A stretch of 64,000 nucleotides of DNA from assembly GCA_028865725.1 (NCBI GenBank), contig JAGWJP010000004.1, forward strand, positions 5,567-69,566, read 5' to 3'. This document shows positions 32,701 to 40,054 of the stretch, in pieces. The first letter of the stretch is position 1, and every line of letters starts with the position of its first letter. Source of the stretch: Patescibacteria group bacterium (GTDB lineage Bacteria > Patescibacteriota > Minisyncoccia > UBA6257 > JACRHW01). A program made the position numbers and the translations under genes. Below the pieces are notes generated by a model. It saw only the letters and a program-made list of their open reading frames with translations, was not told the origin of the DNA and searched no databases.

Positions 32701-35175
32701 ATGTCTTTTGTTTTTTTTATTGTTGCGTGCGTAATCCTTCTCATATTGTTCGTGATAGGACTTCTTATGCTTTCGCGCTTCCGTGCGCGTGGAGCCCTGG
32801 CGCGCGGGCTTAATATGACGCTTTTTTCAGTACGTGTGGCACGTGAATTTTCAGAGCGTGGCGGTCAATCCGGAGAGCAACAGCAGAAACAAGAAAAAGA
32901 CCTCATTGCGGTTACTGAACAGATGCTTTCCTCAATGAGCAGTCTTCATTCTAAAGGATGGAAAAAATTTTTATACGGAGAACCTTATGTTGTATTTGAG
33001 ATAGGGGTGCATCATATCGGCGAAGAAATTAGCTTTTATGTAGCGACGCCCAATGCATATTCCGAACTTATTGAAAAACAGATTCATTCATTTTATCCGA
33101 CTGCAGAGATTGCGCCCGCGACAGACTATAATATTTTTAATCCTGCGGGTATAAGCGTGGGTGCATATATGATCCTCAAGGGGTATCAAGTGCTCCCTTT
33201 TCGTACGTATCAGATGCTTCCCGCAGATCCGCTTGGTGATATTTTGACAGCCATGTCAAAATTGTCACGCGAAGGGGAGGGTGCCGCATTTCAGGTCTTA
33301 ATTCGCCCATCGCACAAAAAGCATTATGCAAAAGAATCGTCCCGTATTCTCAAAGAGTTGCAAAAAGGGGTTTCTTGGAAGGAGGCGTTGCATAAAGTAG
33401 GATCATCATTTGGCACCGAAGTGCTCCAGGAAATAAATCGGGCGGTAAATCCTCTTGTCGAAACGTCAGGAGAAAAAAGGGAGGAGCCGCGGCAGGTACT
33501 CCCTCATCACCAAGAGTTGATAAAAGCGGTTGCGAATAAATTTTCCAAGCCGGCATTTGATGTGAATGTACGACTTGTTGCCTCTGCGCCTACTGAAATG
33601 AAAGCAGAAGAAATCTTGCGCGACATGCAGAGCGCGTTTGTTCAATTTGAAGCTCCGGATTTTAATGCATTTCATGCAGTGGCGATGAAAGGAAAAGCTC
33701 GCGACGCATTCATGCGCGATTATTCATTCAGAATTTTTAATGAACAGTACGCCATGTTTTTAGGTACGGAGGAAATAGCAAGTTTTTATCACTTTCCGCT
33801 TCCCACCACCGCGACACCTCGTGTACGGTTTCTCAAAGCAAAACCGGCAGAACCTCCGCGCGATCTCCCCGAAGCAGGAGTTATTTTGGGAACTAACGTG
33901 TATCGCGGACAGGAAACGCTCGTACGTATTCACGGAGAAGATCGCCGTCGGCACATGTATATTATTGGACAGACAGGGACAGGTAAATCAACCCTTTTAA
34001 AGCACATGATCCGTCAGGACATTGCGGCGGGGCATGGTATTGCAGTACTTGATCCGAATGGCGATCTGGTGGATGCGGCGCTTTCATATGTGCCCAAAGA
34101 ACGGGCTGATGATGTTATTGTGTTTGATCCGAGCGATGTGGCGCACCCTATGGGATTGAACTTTTTAACGATTGATCCCGCAAAGCCTACCCAAAAAACG
34201 GATGTGATCGATGAGTTTTATAAGATTTTAAAAGCAGTATATAAAGATCAGCCGGAGGGGTTCGGTCCGCTGTTTGAAAAATATTTTCGCTATGCCTTAA
34301 TGCTGTTGCTTGATGATTATGAAAATGAAATTCCTACTATCGCCGAAGTAGGAAGAGTATTTGCAGATGAAGCTTATCGTGAAGCAAAATTGAGCCGCGA
34401 AAAAAATCCTGATATCAAGCGTTTTTGGAAGTTTGAGGCGGAGCAAGCACAAGGTGATTGGTCGTTATCCAACATGTCAGCATATATTACCTCAAAATTT
34501 GCGCCGTTTCTGGGAAATGATTATATGCGTCCTATTATTACCCAGCAAAAGAGCGCGTTTGATTTTCGAAAAATGATGGACGAAAAAAAGATTCTTCTCG
34601 TGAAATTGCCGAAAGGTATTGTAGGAGAATTGAATGTCGCGCTCATCGGTATGATTATGGTTTCTCGCTTGATGCTTGCCGCGTTTTCGCGCGCCGATCT
34701 TTCCCCGGAAGACCAAAAGAAAGCTCCGGATTTTTTTGTGTATATCGACGAGTTTCAGGATTTTAGTACGGATTCATTAGCAACCATTCTTGCACAAGGA
34801 CGCAAATACCACATTGATCTTATTATGGCGCACCAGTTTATCGCCCAGCTTACCGATAAGGTGCGTGAAGCGGTATTTGGAAACGTGGGCACCCTGCTCG
34901 CGTTTCGTATTAGTCCGGATGATGCAGAAAAACTGAAAATTCAATTTCAGCCCGTGTTTTCTCCGGCAGATATTGTGAGCATTGATAATTTTAATTGTTA
35001 TATTAAACTTCTTATTGATGGTGCGCCGAGCAGACCTTTTAATATTCAATTCGGGTTTCCTCTGGAAGGCAATATGAAGCTTGCAGGGCAAATCGAAGAG
35101 CTTTCTCGCCTGAAATACGGAAGAGATCGGGAAGACGTTGAACGTGAATATTATGAACGAAGCGCCTCCGAGTAG
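32701..35175 (+). CDS. VirD4/TraD/TrwB-like type IV secretion coupling ATPase (T4SS DNA-binding domain family), N-terminal TM
   Basis: Walker A IIGQTGTGKSTLLKHM; Walker B/DEF region FFVYIDEFQDFSTDSLATILAQGRKYHIDLIMAHQFIAQL typical of TraG/TraD C-terminal domain. Confidence 0.7.
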   Translation: MSFVFFIVACVILLILFVIGLLMLSRFRARGALARGLNMTLFSVRVAREFSERGGQSGEQQQKQEKDLIAVTEQMLSSMSSLHSKGWKKFLYGEPYVVFEIGVHHIGEEISFYVATPNAYSELIEKQIHSFYPTAEIAPATDYNIFNPAGISVGAYMILKGYQVLPFRTYQMLPADPLGDILTAMSKLSREGEGAAFQVLIRPSHKKHYAKESSRILKELQKGVSWKEALHKVGSSFGTEVLQEINRAVNPLVETSGEKREEPRQVLPHHQELIKAVANKFSKPAFDVNVRLVASAPTEMKAEEILRDMQSAFVQFEAPDFNAFHAVAMKGKARDAFMRDYSFRIFNEQYAMFLGTEEIASFYHFPLPTTATPRVRFLKAKPAEPPRDLPEAGVILGTNVYRGQETLVRIHGEDRRRHMYIIGQTGTGKSTLLKHMIRQDIAAGHGIAVLDPNGDLVDAALSYVPKERADDVIVFDPSDVAHPMGLNFLTIDPAKPTQKTDVIDEFYKILKAVYKDQPEGFGPLFEKYFRYALMLLLDDYENEIPTIAEVGRVFADEAYREAKLSREKNPDIKRFWKFEAEQAQGDWSLSNMSAYITSKFAPFLGNDYMRPIITQQKSAFDFRKMMDEKKILLVKLPKGIVGELNVALIGMIMVSRLMLAAFSRADLSPEDQKKAPDFFVYIDEFQDFSTDSLATILAQGRKYHIDLIMAHQFIAQLTDKVREAVFGNVGTLLAFRISPDDAEKLKIQFQPVFSPADIVSIDNFNCYIKLLIDGAPSRPFNIQFGFPLEGNMKLAGQIEELSRLKYGRDREDVEREYYERSASE

Positions 35176-35179
35176 CATT

Positions 35180-35842
35180 ATGCAGATCGTTTCTCTTATC
35201 ACTAAGGATGGTGTGCGCATCGCAGGGGACTATTATGCTCCGCGTCGAGAGAGTAATCGTGGCGCGTTGTTGATCCACATGATGCCTGCGACGCGAGTAT
35301 CGTGGCGCAGGCTCGCCCCACGGATAGAGGAAGAGGGCATGCATGTGCTTGCAATTGACTTGCGTGGGCATGGAGAGTCGGAGGGCGGACCTCAAGGCTA
35401 CACGTCATTTAGTGACGCGGAACATAAGAAGAGCATCTTTGATCTTGAGGCGGGAGTCGAGTTTTTGTGTCAGAAAGGCGTAGATAGAGAGCACCTTTCT
35501 CTCGTGGGAGCATCGATTGGCGCTAATCTAGTGCTCCAATATGGAGCTACACACAAAGTTTCAGCACTTGTGCTCCTTTCCCCCGGGTTGGACTATCGAG
35601 GCATCACTACCCTTCCTTTTCTCTCGCACCTGGTACCGGGACAACGCGTGTTCTTGGCAAGTTCTGAAGATGATGAGCGAAGCGGAGGCAGTAGCGCAGA
35701 TATGACTCGTACGATTGCCGAACATATCCCTCGGAGCATCGATAAAAAAATCGTTATGTATCACAACGCCGGACACGGTACTGATATGTTCGGTAAGGAG
35801 GATCCGGATCTTGAACAGGAAATTCTCTTTTTTCTGTCCTAG
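35180..35842 (+). CDS. Alpha/beta hydrolase (dienelactone-hydrolase-like)
   Basis: HVLAIDLRGHGES and nucleophile elbow LVGASIGAN. Confidence 0.6.
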   Translation: MQIVSLITKDGVRIAGDYYAPRRESNRGALLIHMMPATRVSWRRLAPRIEEEGMHVLAIDLRGHGESEGGPQGYTSFSDAEHKKSIFDLEAGVEFLCQKGVDREHLSLVGASIGANLVLQYGATHKVSALVLLSPGLDYRGITTLPFLSHLVPGQRVFLASSEDDERSGGSSADMTRTIAEHIPRSIDKKIVMYHNAGHGTDMFGKEDPDLEQEILFFLS

Positions 35843-35849
35843 AAAAAAT

Positions 35850-36275
35850 ATGTTTTACATTTCACCCGCATTAAAAAAGATATCTCGGTTTGCAGTGATC
35901 GGAGTGATGAATACGGCCGTTGATTTTGGTGTGTTGAATCTTGAGCTTTTTCTTTTCCCCGCGCACCTCAATTTAGCGGTGTTATTTAATACCATTTCGT
36001 TTAGCATCGCCGTGACGAATAGTTATTTTTGGAACAAATATTGGACATTTGAAGGAAAAGGGGAAGCACATGCATCCGAATTCTTCGAATTTTTAGTGGT
36101 GAGCGTGATTGCGCTCGGGATCAATGATGCTGTTCTCTACGCATTGACGAGCACCGTCAAAATCGCTACCATCAAACCAACCCTTTTGATTAACGGGGCA
36201 AAGCTCGTGGGGACACTCGTTTCTATGACATGGAATTTTCTTGGGTATCGTTTCATTTTTAGAATCAATGATTAA
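35850..36275 (+). CDS. GtrA family membrane protein
   Basis: RFAVIGVMNTAVDFGVLNLELF...NSYFWNKYWTF typical GtrA-like motif; four TM helices. Confidence 0.65.
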   Translation: MFYISPALKKISRFAVIGVMNTAVDFGVLNLELFLFPAHLNLAVLFNTISFSIAVTNSYFWNKYWTFEGKGEAHASEFFEFLVVSVIALGINDAVLYALTSTVKIATIKPTLLINGAKLVGTLVSMTWNFLGYRFIFRIND

Positions 36276-36276
36276 A

Positions 36277-36310
36277 TCTCTGCGGGGTCGTCTCACTTGC
36301 CCCGCAGAGA
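36277..36310 (+). terminator. Hairpin after GtrA gene (no clear U-tract)
   Basis: TCTCTGCGGGG-12 nt loop-CCCCGCAGAGA perfect 11-bp stem. Confidence 0.4.
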
Positions 36311-36537
36311 TGTAGGGGAATCTATTCTTGAAAACTCCGAAGGTCGGCACTACGTGGAAATTACAAAACTTTTGCCTCAGGGCCGTTTAGAACCGGCATC
36401 ACAAAGGGGATGTGTTTTCAACGAGGAAGGGTCGTCCTTGGAAAACTGTGTGTTTTGAAACATGCGTAGATGCCAAAGGTACGAGAGTCCGCGAAAAACA
36501 AGTAAAAAGATGGCACGGAGATAATGCGTTGAAAGTA

Positions 36538-36635
36538 CTTCTCGGCAAAGCTGCCGGATCGTCTAATGGTAGGACAGCGGCCTTTGAAGCCGTGAATCTT
36601 GGTTCGATTCCAGGTCCGGCAGCTTTGCCGAGAAG
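36538..36635. repeat. Perfect 21-bp inverted repeat arms (36538-36558 and 36615-36635) enclosing the tRNA-Gln
   Basis: CTTCTCGGCAAAGCTGCCGGA is the exact reverse complement of TCCGGCAGCTTTGCCGAGAAG. Confidence 0.8.
36552..36622 (+). tRNA. tRNA-Gln (anticodon UUG)
   Basis: Manual cloverleaf: acceptor TGCCGGA/TCCGGCA, anticodon loop CTTTGAA with UUG, T-loop TTCGATT, discriminator G, U1-A72 as in bacterial tRNA-Gln; no encoded CCA. Confidence 0.85.
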
Positions 36636-36658
36636 AGATAAATCTGGCGGGGTGAAGT

Positions 36659-36711
36659 GGGACAGCGGCCTTTGAAGCTGTATATACAAAGTTCAATTCT
36701 TTTCCCCGCAG
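36659..36711 (+). pseudogene. Degraded partial copy of tRNA-Gln 3' two-thirds
   Basis: 19-nt exact repeat GGACAGCGGCCTTTGAAGC (36572-36590 vs 36660-36678), followed by diverged GTTCAATTCT...CCCGCAG versus GTTCGATTCC...CCGGCAG. Confidence 0.55.
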
Positions 36712-36802
36712 TCACATGGAATTCTCTAGCGTTTACGGTATCGTTTCACAAAATTTTCTTTAAACCGATTTAGAATTTTTGTTTTAAATTTAAATGTAAT
36801 TT

Positions 36803-37060
36803 ATGGAAAAAATAGAAAAATCAAAAGATGTTTGGAAGGGTACAAAATTCTGGACCGATCAGATAAAAGATGCAGGAGTTTATAATAAGATTAAACACTT
36901 TAATGATGTCATAACTGGGAAAGAGGCGCCTCACCCACAAGGATATGGTGATCCGGTTCTTACGGATATTGTGTTGGACGGAAAACGCTGTGATATTTAC
37001 CATACTGATAAAAAACCAGGCGATTCGGGTCATAGAATATACATCCATATTAAAGAATAG
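36803..37060 (+). CDS. Hypothetical small protein (85 aa)
   Basis: ORF only; no signal peptide; lies next to tRNA remnant. Confidence 0.35.
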   Translation: MEKIEKSKDVWKGTKFWTDQIKDAGVYNKIKHFNDVITGKEAPHPQGYGDPVLTDIVLDGKRCDIYHTDKKPGDSGHRIYIHIKE

Positions 37061-37783
37061 TGTCAGGGCAAATAATCTCATTCGTTCATGGCAAAAGCAG
37101 GGTAGCGATAGAAACACTCGCTTTGTTTTTGCAATAAAACTGCTCTAATATCGTTCAAGAAATTAATTCAAAAAAGCCTTCGGCACAATGTTGCTGGAGG
37201 ATTTTTTCTTTTTGAATTCTTTTGATACGATGATCTTGTCCGCCTAACGAAGCAATAGTTATTCAGGCAATATTAAATCAAAGATTGCTTTTCAGAACAA
37301 AGGAGACAGCATATTTGACAGATAAACCGGAATACAATATATTTCATTTTAGTTATTGTTTAAGCAAGGAAAAGAGGGATTTTGTGGGACCAATTAGGAG
37401 ATGTGGTATATCTTTTCGTTCTGTAGAACATTTTCGTTGGTTTCGCGGGAGTATAGTGTCTTTTTGCCTCTTTCTGATATACATACTCCTGGTTCATGTG
37501 TGGAGCATGAGTATCGAATGGCAGAAGGCAATGTGTGTGCTCTTAGGAATCTATCATCTTTTTATCTCTTTTTTGGCCATTATCGTTACTGATTGGGGAA
37601 AAAACAATGGTCCTATTTTTTCCGTTGACTGTATTTGGTTTAATGCGCTGATGGCTTCCGTGTATGCGTGTTTTTTCTTGAGCACGTGTTATGTGTGATA
37701 AAAAGATTCTTAATGTACCCCACTCCAACAAAATGAGTGGTTTTTTATTTTTTGAAGTCTTTAGGTTACAATAAACATGATCT

Positions 37784-39013
37784 GTGAATAATGCACAGGA
37801 ACGTTTAACTATCTTTATTGTTATGGAAGGAAATGCGCCGCATCATCAAAAAATAAGTTCTGAGAAGGCCTTTGAACGGCAATATACTAAACACTACACC
37901 GCAGAGGAACGTGCGCAATTAGCCAAAGAAGTTCGTGAGGAACACGCAAAGATTCTTGCCGAGAAGAAGGGTTTACGAGAAAAGATTTCTTCTTTGAGTG
38001 AGGCAATAGAGGGAAATCTTTTAAAACTTAACGAAGTAGTGAAGAAGGAGAATGATTTAGAAGAGGAGCTTGAGGGGCGCACACAATCATTTCTTCGTGA
38101 ATTTTTGAATAGGAAACGAGTGAAGGCACTGCGGGGCGAGATTGGTGTTACCGAGCAATCTCATGCGCGTATCGAGGAGAAGTATACACAACAGGTAGCA
38201 GAAATAATCGAAATGAAAGCTCTTCTTAGCGACAGAAACCGTCTTCATAATTTGCGCGCGCGCATTCGCGATTTTTATGGCATTTCAAAGGAGGATTTGG
38301 AAAAGAAAAAAGGAGAACGCAACGTGCGTGATGTCAGTACTCTCTATAACGTGCTCGTGGTACACGCAATGAAACACAATTCGAGTTTACTTGCGAGTAC
38401 GCTCACGAAGTTGGATTTCGAAACAAAACTTAAAGTCGTACTCGGTCTTGAGCCGAGTATCGCAGCGTCTACTATTGCAGCAGGCGGGGATATTACAAAT
38501 GTGATTGCATCGCAAGGAGTGATAGTAAGAACGGGTGATATTCAATATGCACGCAGGAGTGATGCCTATAGTGGCGTAGAGGGCGGACTCAGGGGAAATA
38601 GGGTTCCTGCAGGAGGGATTCCGGAAGATCAGAATATTGCGCATGAACTTGATGCCGCTATTTTAAAAAAAGGAGAACAAGGATATAACGAACTTGGCAT
38701 TAAAAATCCAGAAGTCGCAGGGATTTATATGATATTCAATAAGCAAGGCGTGTTTGATGAGAGAGCATCTGCGGCGCCGGAAGAAGAGTTACATGCTGTT
38801 GCTGCACGTTATCACATCCCCGTGTTTGGAATACAGGAGGGTACTCCCCACGAGGCGAGTTACTCTGAAGAAATGAAACATTATGTGCTTGGCAGATCGA
38901 TTACAGTGGAAGAGGTTTTGAATAATAGTTTTCATGTTTCTGATAATGAGAGGGAGAAGCTTATGCAGGAAGTAATCGAGGAAGAAGTAGTGAACAAAGA
39001 ACTGCTGCCGTAG
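37784..39013 (+). CDS. Hypothetical protein with coiled-coil N-terminal half (GTG start; first in-frame ATG at 37823)
   Basis: ORF only; charged heptad-like N-terminus. Confidence 0.4.
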   Translation: MNNAQERLTIFIVMEGNAPHHQKISSEKAFERQYTKHYTAEERAQLAKEVREEHAKILAEKKGLREKISSLSEAIEGNLLKLNEVVKKENDLEEELEGRTQSFLREFLNRKRVKALRGEIGVTEQSHARIEEKYTQQVAEIIEMKALLSDRNRLHNLRARIRDFYGISKEDLEKKKGERNVRDVSTLYNVLVVHAMKHNSSLLASTLTKLDFETKLKVVLGLEPSIAASTIAAGGDITNVIASQGVIVRTGDIQYARRSDAYSGVEGGLRGNRVPAGGIPEDQNIAHELDAAILKKGEQGYNELGIKNPEVAGIYMIFNKQGVFDERASAAPEEELHAVAARYHIPVFGIQEGTPHEASYSEEMKHYVLGRSITVEEVLNNSFHVSDNEREKLMQEVIEEEVVNKELLP

Positions 39014-39043
39014 TGTGGGGCAGAAATTTTTCAAAAAACATAT

Positions 39044-40054
39044 ATGCGAAATGGAGCGAAACTTATTGGCGCGATTCTGGTGTGCGAGCTTGTAGGAGTG
39101 GCGGGTGCCTTTTTTACTGCCTCCGCGATTCGTTCTCACTGGTATGCTGCGCTTCTAAAACCTACGCTTACTCCGCCGCCGTGGGTGTTTGGTTCTGTGT
39201 GGATTGCACTCTATGCGCTGATGGGTATTGCGTGGTGGGTTATATCGCGGCAGAGTAACAGCACGGAGAAGCGTTATGCGTTGATGATATTCGCGATTCA
39301 ATTAGTACTAAACGCGGCGTGGTCGCCTGTCTTTTTTGGAGCGCACGCGGTACGTGCCGCGTTTTTTGTGATTGTGATGCTATGGATTGCAGTTGTGGCA
39401 ATGATTATTGCCGCCAGACGCGTTTCTTTGCTTGCGGCATGGATATTGGTGCCCTACTTGTTGTGGATGACATGGGCGTTGTATTTAAATTACGCATTGT
39501 GGCATCTCAATCCGGAGATGCCTAGGGAAGGAGTGGCGTGTACTCAAGAGGAAAAAATCTGTCCAGATGGTTCTGTGGTTCATCCCATAGGGCAAAACTG
39601 TAAATTTGCGGCATGCCCTGATGTTACCAAGTTTTGGAAAATTATTACCGACCCCAAGACGGGAGCGACATTTAAATACCCCGAATCATTTTCTACTACT
39701 TACCTATATCCCATCGATTGGCCGCCTGCAGTTCAGATCATTCATCAAGCGTTTACATGTAAAGAGGCGGGGAGTGAATTCGGGCGAGCAGGAGAAACGC
39801 GCCGCCGTGTTATAAAGGGAATGACCTTTTGTGTAACAAAGGAAAGCGAGGGAGCAGCGGGGAGCATTTATACACACTATGCCTATGCGTTTGGCGTACA
39901 CGATAACACCGTCATTCTTACGTTTAGTACGCGTAGGGTTCAATGCGCAAACTATGAGGCACCCACACAACAGATATGTGAAGGGGAACGGAATTCATTT
40001 GATCTCGACGGGCTCCTCGATGAAATCGCGCAACATCTGACCTTTTCCTCGTAA
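39044..40054 (+). CDS. tspO: TspO/MBR family protein with extra Cys-rich C-terminal domain
   Basis: WYAALLKPTLTPPPWVFGSVWIALYALMGIAWWV and five TM helices in first ~160 aa; C-terminal ~175 aa soluble region with 8 Cys. Confidence 0.7.
   Translation: MRNGAKLIGAILVCELVGVAGAFFTASAIRSHWYAALLKPTLTPPPWVFGSVWIALYALMGIAWWVISRQSNSTEKRYALMIFAIQLVLNAAWSPVFFGAHAVRAAFFVIVMLWIAVVAMIIAARRVSLLAAWILVPYLLWMTWALYLNYALWHLNPEMPREGVACTQEEKICPDGSVVHPIGQNCKFAACPDVTKFWKIITDPKTGATFKYPESFSTTYLYPIDWPPAVQIIHQAFTCKEAGSEFGRAGETRRRVIKGMTFCVTKESEGAAGSIYTHYAYAFGVHDNTVILTFSTRRVQCANYEAPTQQICEGERNSFDLDGLLDEIAQHLTFSS

Follow-up and report, generated by a model that had tools for sequence, protein, structure and literature searches.

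What left a degraded second tRNA-Gln sequence directly behind the only intact tRNA gene in a 64-kb stretch of a Patescibacteria genome? The stretch, hereafter the window, comprises 64,000 nt of contig JAGWJP010000004.1 from a metagenome-assembled member of the Patescibacteria (candidate phyla radiation, CPR); the relatives with which it was compared are Paceibacterota and Yanofskybacteria bins. The initial annotation had described the second sequence as a partial duplicate of the 3' portion of the intact tRNA, left by an integrase-borne element whose interior was lost from between the two copies. We consider a different history probable, namely that a homing-endonuclease-like cassette, made up of a small GIY-YIG endonuclease gene and a complete tRNA-Gln gene of foreign lineage, broke the resident tRNA-Gln gene and replaced it. 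The locus lies in a 527-nt gap between a gtrA-family gene (35850-36275) on the 5' side and an 85-aa open reading frame (ORF) without a family (36803-37060) on the 3' side. Within this gap the order is a 5' fragment of tRNA-Gln, a GIY-YIG pseudogene, the intact tRNA-Gln with a 21-bp helix around it, and a tRNA-Gln relic. All coordinates are window positions, and features lie on the forward strand except for a pair of terminal inverted repeats, to which no strand applies.

The intact gene, a tRNA-Gln(UUG) at 36552-36623, is called by ARAGORN and scores 61.2 bits against the Rfam tRNA model; by both tools it is the sole tRNA of the window. Its acceptor stem reads TGCCGGA/TCCGGCA and its variable loop GAAT. 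As initially reported, the 19-mer GGACAGCGGCCTTTGAAGC has exactly two copies in the window, at 36572-36590 and 36660-36678 (two matches were seen in 0 of 100 shuffles), and the second copy runs on into a diverged T-arm and CCCCGCAG. Rare as it is in the window, the 19-mer is common across metagenomes: a 32-mer that contains it, TCGTCTAAYGGTAGGACAGCGGCCTTTGAAGC, is found in at least 120 metagenome contigs as well as three contigs of a viral collection. This 32-mer is the invariant core of the D-arm and anticodon arm of tRNA-Gln(UUG) in the phylum, and among 89 distinct tRNA-Gln genes variation is confined to the acceptor stem, variable loop and T-arm. Thus, the identity of the two 19-mers reflects the conservation of tRNA-Gln and is no evidence of a recent duplication.

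The degraded copy, at 36647-36711, turns out to be nearly full-length rather than a 3' part. The Rfam tRNA model spans 36647-36710 with its full length (positions 1-71), scoring 22.1 bits with an E-value of 0.053 against a gathering score of 29, and an nhmmer search gives 30.8 bits (E 5e-8). The relic has its own 5' acceptor strand, GCGGGG (36647-36652), which pairs with CCCCGC (36704-36709), and it folds on its own, with the anticodon arm kept and the T-arm still pairing as AAAG/CTTT. About 6 nt of its D-arm are gone, and the 5' acceptor strand has gained an extra G. ARAGORN does not call it and its D-arm is deleted in the Rfam alignment, so that it does not qualify as a functional tRNA gene. 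Its 3' acceptor strand is CCCCGCA, compared with TCCGGCA in the intact gene. Between the two sequences, pairs 4:69 and 7:66 of the acceptor stem have changed on both sides with pairing kept, as have pairs of the T-stem, and the variable loops differ too. Neutral decay of a duplicate would not give such paired changes, which indicates that the relic is not a decayed copy of the intact gene and that the two represent separately functional lineages.

Which of them is the resident can be judged from the closest relative, L002, which has 66-82% amino acid identity to the window and aligns with it at the nucleotide level through gtrA to window position 36248. Following its gtrA (66% amino acid identity between the GtrA orthologues), L002 has a single tRNA-Gln and no relic, cassette or GIY-YIG gene. 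The L002 tRNA-Gln has the acceptor TGCGGGA/TCCCGCA and the variable loop ATAT; the relic has TGCGGGG-type acceptor strands and the loop ATAT(A). Of the 89 distinct tRNA-Gln sequences, L002's syntenic gene alone has this loop. When the 3' two-thirds of the relic were compared with the same 89 sequences, L002 ranked second and the intact window gene 48th. The intact gene, for its part, has one mismatch to the tRNA-Gln of L097, an unrelated Patescibacterium with no synteny and little similarity to the window, and eight to the syntenic gene of L002. From the ATAT loop, the rank of L002, the match to L097 and the compensated pairs we conclude, on few characters and a single relative, that the relic is probably the old, vertically inherited resident gene and the intact tRNA an imported newcomer. 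The event appears to be specific to this lineage. The initial annotation, which took the degraded sequence for a duplicate of the intact tRNA, therefore seems to have had the polarity reversed, while its broader claim, a mobile-element scar at a tRNA gene, fits the comparison with L002.

The agent proposed there fares less well. A tyrosine or serine integrase would have put an element into tRNA-Gln, the repeat would represent attL and attR, and the interior would later have been deleted down to about 40 nt. It is true that tRNA genes are classical integration sites, that a direct repeat of tRNA sequence adjoins the intact tRNA, and that synteny with L002 breaks at tRNA-Gln. However, no gene of either integrase family was found among the genes called from about 7 kb upstream to 13 kb downstream (29-50 kb), nor in L002, which lacks the tandem arrangement. 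The anatomy of the repeat is not that of an att site. The unit as a whole is tRNA-like (model positions 1-71) and supplies a 5' acceptor strand of its own, and the repeat begins in the D-stem, whereas an att repeat would begin in the anticodon loop, in the T-loop or at the 3' end. Att repeats stem from a single crossover and match the reconstituted gene, but here the two copies disagree in the variable loop, the T-stem and the 3' acceptor strand. Nor has the space between the copies lost the interior of the element, which is found upstream and comprises the GIY-YIG pseudogene and the intact tRNA itself; an integrase explains neither this pseudogene nor the 5' fragment. We regard an integrase origin as extremely unlikely.

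The 5' fragment, TGCGGGGTCGTCT, comprises 13 nt at 36281-36293, starting four bases past the gtrA stop codon, and represents the 5' strands of the resident acceptor stem and D-stem. Its sequence is exactly that of positions 1-13 in tRNA-Gln genes of the TGCGGGG type, for example those of L112 and L118, and it is complementary to the 3' end of the relic (36704-36710). Between it and the intact tRNA sits the frameshifted GIY-YIG pseudogene, at about 36310-36537, which we detected with a family hidden Markov model (HMM) built from 13 GIY-YIG ORFs adjoining tRNA-Gln genes in other loci. The N-terminal half (36324-36392) matches profile positions 6-28 and the C-terminal half (36391-36537) positions 28-77 in the next frame; an ATG at 36310 meets a stop codon at once. 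The C-terminal half scores 22.8-24.1 bits (E 5e-5) and is the window's sole match when 1.68 Mb from Patescibacteria loci are searched in all six frames. On the stitched translation, Pfam PF01541 aligns over positions 6-75 of 78 with an E-value of 0.011 and 16.5 bits, below the cut-off. In the family alignment the pseudogene keeps six invariant residues, while the Tyr of the first motif and a conserved His are replaced. The whole inserted segment measures about 366 nt (about 36294-36659). Its left junction, TCGTCT|CA, matches that of another locus, L142, where TCGTCT|CAT ATG marks the start of an intact GIY-YIG gene.

The same architecture recurs in other genomes. We gathered tRNA-Gln loci with the 32-mer and identified fragments with an nhmmer profile and by direct reading. 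Dead tRNA-Gln fragments stand beside an intact tRNA-Gln at 12 other loci (L094, L096, L108, L113/L187, L142, L148, L162, L168, L169, L180, L197 and L208). The clearest counterpart is L142, in which a TGCGGGG-type resident is broken by an intact GIY-YIG ORF and a TGGGAGA-type gene with a 12-bp helix. In L096 a complete gene with an extended helix lies between a 5' part (1-20) and a 3' part (16-71), and in L113/L187 a complete gene lies between a 5' part (1-27) and a 3' part (36-70). Four loci (L094, L108, L169 and L180) show a 5' fragment, an intact GIY-YIG ORF and an intact tRNA, and L168 shows an intact tRNA, a GIY-YIG ORF and the 3' fragment of a gene with another acceptor type; in L148, L162, L197 and L208 dead fragments adjoin the intact gene. 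Halves of the target are thus present on both sides in the window, L096, L113, L142 and L208, and on one side in L094, L108, L162, L168, L169 and L180. The intact GIY-YIG genes of L094, L108, L142, L168 and others match Pfam with E-values of 1e-14 to 1e-17. Two further cases come from a sample described below: L214 has a GIY-YIG gene, a dead tRNA, an intact tRNA of the same type and a second GIY-YIG gene, and L220 has a dead tRNA-Gln(CUG), an intact gene of another acceptor type and a GIY-YIG gene. Dead and live copies differ in acceptor type in L142, L148, L168, L208 and L220. The dead copies are considered non-functional because they are often truncated or carry small GC-rich palindromic inserts.

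These inserts, of the form CCTCGGCCGTAG...CTACGGGCGAGG, were seen inside dead tRNA-Gln copies of L142, L180, L214, L094, L108, L168, L169, L208 and L220, for example at about 1178-1260 of L142 (oriented), about 1470-1530 of L180 and 870-925 of L214. These last three contigs are unrelated and share the insertion point TCGTC^TAAYGG. The inserts may indicate where the cut is made, or may represent a miniature element in its own right that inserts site-specifically. Two GIY-YIG genes are present in each of L180, L142 and L214. On the 3' side of the intact tRNA-Gln of L180 (oriented, about 1875-2030), a segment of about 150 nt runs from TGGGAGA to GGTCCAAGTCTCCCAAC. It resembles a further tRNA-Gln relic, with heavy interruptions, which suggests that one locus was invaded repeatedly.

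The endonuclease gene is tightly linked to tRNA-Gln. Among the Patescibacteria loci (1.68 Mb) there are 12 distinct intact GIY-YIG ORFs next to tRNA-Gln. Each shares the strand of the tRNA and either ends 4-19 nt before it or starts 1 to about 100 nt after it. They adjoin roughly 10% of the sampled tRNA-Gln(UUG) loci, while in the same sample none of 50 other tRNAs has an abutting GIY-YIG ORF. Because this sample is biased towards tRNA-Gln, we also ran the test in reverse. A profile search returned 5969 homologous proteins of about 80 aa (E <= 1e-8), those with a named source coming from Patescibacteria bins, and we picked seven by rank and by length of contig, without reference to tRNAs. All seven genes lie 18-740 nt downstream of a tRNA-Gln (five CUG, two UUG), which is the sole tRNA in each locus; the neighbourhoods are otherwise unrelated. 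The GIY-YIG gene is an accessory one and sporadic among close relatives: L002 is without it, and of two contigs that share 89% nucleotide identity up to the 3' end of the same tRNA-Gln, L110 continues with a GIY-YIG gene and L181 with a gene for a 278-aa methyltransferase. In this pair the position 3' of tRNA-Gln behaves as a variable slot.

Intact members of the family are 78-92 aa long and are filled by the catalytic domain. The family profile matches the PDB entries 1zg2 (BH0048, E 5e-23) and 1ywl (EF2693, E 9e-20), and more weakly SLX1 (about 2e-4) and the catalytic domain of I-TevI (9e-3). By these matches the proteins are stand-alone GIY-YIG proteins of the UPF0213 type, distantly related to SLX1 and to the I-TevI catalytic domain.

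Recurrence and linkage bear directly on a simpler account, in which slippage or unequal crossing-over duplicated the resident tRNA-Gln locally, the redundant copies decayed, and the GIY-YIG pseudogene has nothing to do with the event. Within 560 nt there are indeed three pieces derived from tRNA-Gln and two copies of the gtrA end, and in-place duplication evidently occurs, as dead and live copies have the same acceptor type in L096, L113 and L214. Endonucleases of the SegB type, discussed below, themselves provoke tandem duplication (PMC13096335). However, local duplication accounts neither for the compensated pairs in two stems nor for the presence of the orthologue's rare ATAT loop in the relic instead of the intact gene, nor for the near identity between the intact gene and one from an unrelated genome. 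The GIY-YIG pseudogene, with the 5' fragment directly on one side and the intact tRNA on the other, has the position of its counterparts in L094, L108, L142, L169 and L180, and its family is linked to tRNA-Gln in seven of seven unbiased samples. We therefore judge local duplication unlikely as an explanation of the locus.

Under the cassette reading, the events may have run as follows. A resident tRNA-Gln(UUG) with the acceptor TGCGGGG/CCCCGCA and the variable loop ATATA would have stood just after gtrA until a segment of about 366 nt interrupted its D-arm after position 13 (TCGTCT). That segment would originally have held a free-standing endonuclease gene of about 80 codons, followed by a complete tRNA-Gln(UUG) of a different lineage. 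The endonuclease is presumed to cut tRNA-Gln genes in the invariant D-arm region, and repair of the break would copy in the endonuclease gene. As genomes usually have one copy of this essential tRNA gene, an insertion would survive only by delivering a working tRNA-Gln as well. In some cases, such as the window and L142, this would be a whole gene; elsewhere a hybrid or duplicated gene may serve. Once the cassette was fixed, the endonuclease gene would decay, acquiring frameshifts and losing the conserved Tyr and His, and the broken resident gene would decay into the 13-nt 5' fragment and the relic. Decay after fixation is the usual life cycle of homing nuclease genes. Template-switching repair could have made the hairpin, the terminal inverted repeats and the gtrA-end copy described in the following paragraph, and perhaps the 14-bp leader/trailer extension of the intact tRNA. 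Of this account, the layout of the locus, its absence from L002, its recurrence elsewhere and the linkage to tRNA-Gln are observed, whereas cleavage with its site and specificity, the direction of transfer and the role of the helix are inferred.

The junctions contain several displaced or inverted copies of local sequence. The ends of the inserted segment form imperfect terminal inverted repeats, 36289-36315 on the left against the reverse complement of 36634-36664 on the right (score 24 compared with 11.6 +/- 2.4 in shuffles; 0 of 1000 as high). The right repeat holds TAAATCT followed by GGCGGGGT, a copy of the 5' flank and acceptor strand of the resident tRNA. At the left end, a hairpin at 36273-36314 has the arms TAAATCTCTGCGGGG and CCCCGCAGAGATGTA, an inverted repeat of 15 nt with 93% complementarity; its 3' arm is an inverted copy of the tRNA 5' flank and acceptor strand. 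We had considered this arm as a relic of a tRNA 3' end, which is ruled out by pairing that extends into non-tRNA flank (ATCT/AGAT). Directly after the relic lies a decayed, frameshifted duplicate of the 3' end of gtrA (copy B, 36713-36781), which aligns to the functional 3' end, comprising the last 50 nt or so of the gene and the spacer TAAATCT (copy A, 36227-36282), with a score of 43 compared with 22.4 +/- 3.9 in shuffles (0 of 1000 as high). In the GtrA frame of copy B, a 7-nt insertion destroys the C-terminal motif WNFLGYRF. An arrangement of three tandem units, each of gtrA end and tRNA, was dropped, as the sequence after the hairpin scores 14 against the gtrA end and shuffles score 13.6 +/- 2.0.

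Template-switching, error-prone synthesis at a broken end is a known source of inverted and displaced copies of nearby sequence (quasipalindromes), which conservative site-specific recombination does not yield. The junction copies would thus fit break repair and not such recombination, and copy B may be the remnant of a break-induced tandem duplication. Nor do the ends look like those of a miniature inverted-repeat transposable element (MITE) or an insertion sequence (IS): there is no transposase, and the window holds no other copy of the ends or of the leader. The imperfect 21-26-nt inverted repeats fail that reading because they are copies of the local tRNA flank. More generally, the 19-mer, the leader strand and the hairpin arm have no further copies in the window beyond chance.

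Several points weigh against a homing cassette. The window's endonuclease gene is a pseudogene with a Pfam score of 16.5 bits, short of the cut-off, and a search for a close intact homologue that might be its donor found nothing nearer than about 38% identity. The family consists of bare GIY-YIG domains lacking the DNA-binding or specificity region of I-TevI and the Seg proteins. None of its members is known to cut DNA site-specifically, and UPF0213 proteins of other bacteria are not known to be mobile or linked to tRNAs. Classical homing is more precise than the fragment end-points suggest, which fall after position 13 in the window and L142 (TCGTCT|CA) and after about 20, 21, about 26, 27 and about 34 elsewhere. 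Simple homing predicts neither the relic's own 5' acceptor-like strand nor the duplicated TAAATCT flank nor copy B; the last is predicted by the integration model no better. There is only one close relative, so the polarity stands on few characters, and a clean pair of empty and filled sites was not found, L110 and L181 differing beyond the endonuclease gene. The right half of the arrangement is unconfirmed by a second assembly, the independent contig discussed below covering the left half only. Finally, the incoming tRNA has the presumed target's own D-arm sequence and would itself have to escape cutting. The same paradox is seen with SegB of phage T4, whose own target sites persist (PMC2330249).

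A feature that marks the incoming gene is a perfect 21-bp inverted repeat (36538-36558/36615-36635) that clamps it. The leader strand (36538-36551) overlaps the 3' end of the GIY-YIG pseudogene, the trailer strand occupies 36624-36635, and the helix lengthens the acceptor stem by 14 consecutive pairs, compared with 0-2 pairs in 112 of 119 tRNA-Gln loci. Predicted duplex energies are -29.7 kcal/mol for the window, -31.1 for L096, -32.4 for L113, -21.6 for L142 and -18.8 for L208, against a median of -9.7 over the 119 loci; long leader/trailer duplexes go with doubly nested loci. The helix may be a mutational by-product, an acceptor-stem palindrome lengthened by template switching. Alternatively, it may be selected, either for correct folding of the new tRNA beside the competing strands of the relic or as a processing site; that it is still perfect while the adjoining nuclease gene has decayed badly speaks for selection or for a recent event. 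At five other loci (L133, L147, L165, L166 and L177), tRNA-Gln has helices of -20 to -37 kcal/mol with no relic or endonuclease gene detectable nearby, and the family HMM detected no decayed endonuclease gene at the long-helix loci L096, L113, L133, L147, L166 and L177. Positions -2/-1 are GC in all tRNAs with long leader/trailer helices and AT in ordinary loci.

Such helices raise the question of whether the nested arrangement is itself a functional RNA, with outer halves and inner tRNA co-transcribed, the insert acting as an intron-like or processing cassette, and the outer tRNA being used. The predicted fold of a 451-nt transcript includes an outer acceptor stem (36280-87/36704-11), a closing helix, the anticodon and T arms of the relic and a 23-bp stem that bears the inner tRNA; it has a z-score of -3.95, and the nesting persists in the predicted centroid. 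Leader/trailer helices of different sequence recur in other nested loci, and group I introns are known in Patescibacteria tRNA genes (PMC13011429). However, the closing helix follows automatically from the duplicated acceptor strands, and a working outer tRNA would make the inner replacement unnecessary. Outer fragments elsewhere are truncated, without an anticodon loop or full of GC-rich palindromic inserts, and so are dead. At gathering thresholds, Rfam reports tRNA alone in the whole window, with no intron, riboswitch or other RNA; even at E-values up to 10, the region 36150-36850 gives two tRNA matches and two chance matches, with no match to the group I intron covariance models or to another intron or RNA family. 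A functional nested RNA is, on this evidence, very unlikely.

Could the arrangement have arisen in the assembly instead, by joining two strain variants through the 19-25 nt of anticodon-arm sequence that they share? The genome is metagenome-assembled, and an independent Logan assembly of run SRR32006840 (L083, 1297 nt), which matches the left half of the locus base for base, stops in the anticodon arm of the intact tRNA, inside the shared 19-mer. This end point may reflect low coverage or strain variation. Against an artefact stand the identity of the left part in an independent run, a second long contig reported to have the same flanking genes on both sides, and the occurrence of the same nested architecture in many unrelated assemblies. 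In addition, the left border of the relic is an inverted copy of sequence 350 nt upstream and its right border is followed by copy B, which a chimeric join would hardly produce. We consider an assembly artefact the least probable of the alternatives.

The closest known parallel to the homing cassette is SegB of phages T4 and T6. SegB is a free-standing GIY-YIG endonuclease that recognises a conserved motif of tRNA genes and spreads together with flanking tRNA genes (PMC2330249), and it drives tandem amplification of the tRNA-segB segment through microhomology (PMC13096335). In both systems a GIY-YIG nuclease gene lies among or beside tRNA genes, in a genome that keeps tRNA sites which are cleavable or, here, presumably so. 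SegB, however, has about 220 aa with regions beyond its catalytic domain and targets a T-arm motif of many phage tRNA genes. The family described here consists of putative endonucleases, bare domains of about 80 aa; its scars lie in the D-arm and anticodon stem, its hosts are cellular Patescibacteria, and it is associated with one tRNA species (Gln, both isoacceptors). Moreover, the window has a nested resident relic around a complete replacement gene with a leader/trailer clamp. In size and single-domain build the family resembles the UPF0213 proteins 1zg2 and 1ywl, which their depositors named 'hypothetical' and to which no function is assigned. SLX1, unlike this family, is structure-specific and works with a partner.

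Three other systems share features with the locus. Islands and prophages integrated at tRNA genes likewise leave an intact tRNA by a partial or decayed copy, interrupt synteny and make good the function of the gene that they enter. The present locus, in contrast, lacks an integrase, its repeat does not correspond to the 3' part of a reconstituted gene, its replacement gene is foreign and whole, and its junctions show inverted and displaced local copies. In the essential atp6 gene of the fungus Allomyces, a free-standing GIY-YIG ORF was reportedly described by Paquin, Laforest and Lang in 1994 as having arrived with a foreign gene end that keeps the gene functional, the resident segment persisting as a downstream pseudogene, and Allomyces mitochondrial genomes are said to carry GC-rich double-hairpin elements at the same sites. 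That case concerns part of an organellar protein-coding gene, whereas here a whole bacterial tRNA gene is replaced. The third system is found in the same phylum, where group I introns, self-splicing and mostly without endonuclease genes, interrupt the anticodon loop of tRNA-Asn and tRNA-Asp (PMC13011429); these, too, are interrupted tRNA genes missed by standard tools. That survey of tRNA introns in the phylum (mSystems 2026) mentions neither tRNA-Gln nor GIY-YIG, and our search of full-text literature, whose coverage leaves out most subscription journals, found no description of a GIY-YIG/tRNA-Gln linkage or of nested tRNA genes in Patescibacteria. The type of mechanism would therefore be a known one, that of SegB. 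What appears to be new is the CPR host, the UPF0213 family and its small size, the restriction to tRNA-Gln, the scars in the D-arm and the clamped, nested relics.

A single relic would be modest by itself, but this one leads to a widespread association. We see an even balance of probability for the general proposition that the UPF0213-type GIY-YIG family of about 80 aa, with thousands of genes, is a phylum-wide selfish element of the tRNA-Gln D-arm, which breaks the resident gene, arrives with all or part of a replacement tRNA-Gln and leaves nested relics beside a helix-marked new gene. If so, an essential tRNA gene of reduced genomes would be the object of target-replacement homing, and stand-alone UPF0213 nucleases would gain their first biological role or functional context. 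They would be the smallest known homing endonucleases, with a defined and highly conserved candidate target of about 20-30 bp. One would then ask where a bare catalytic domain gets its specificity from, how a minimal genome withstands attack on a tRNA gene that is essential and present once, and whether tRNA genes are often replaced horizontally in the phylum. For annotation, the original gene of a Patescibacteria locus may be a sub-threshold tRNA-like sequence, with the annotated tRNA beside it being imported, a possibility that bears on tRNA-based phylogeny and on the reading of 'integration sites'. Some 6000 clustered proteins of 80 aa, annotated as 'GIY-YIG nuclease family protein', appear to be tied to tRNA-Gln genes.

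The surroundings of the locus are in part well conserved. The upstream neighbour encodes a GtrA-family protein of 141 aa (PF04138; the exact protein, P0001, is present in public data), and farther upstream lie an alpha/beta hydrolase gene and a gene for an 824-aa DUF8128/TrwB-like ATPase. This operon of ATPase, hydrolase and GtrA (window 32701-36275; L002-L089) is kept in many Patescibacteria, and a genome scan found more than 100 relatives of the 824-aa ATPase. Among the relatives sought by the GtrA and 824-aa protein scans, L002 is the single close one: where GtrA identity is 53% or lower, gtrA is followed by a prepilin-like gene and no tRNA, and the tRNA is absent from the Yanofskybacteria and other loci of the 824-aa protein scan. 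A promoter and terminator scan of 35800-37100 gave nothing informative, and a megablast search of 35000-38500 against 50,697 phage records, made with a phage origin in mind, returned no match. GC content is 0.40 in window 36-38 kb and about 0.45 elsewhere. Synteny with L002 stops at tRNA-Gln (window 36712-40054 compared with L002 9810-12247). Past this point the window has ORFs of no known family, TspO and RNase R, and L002 seems, from its translations, to have genes for a CsoR-type repressor and a copper ATPase.

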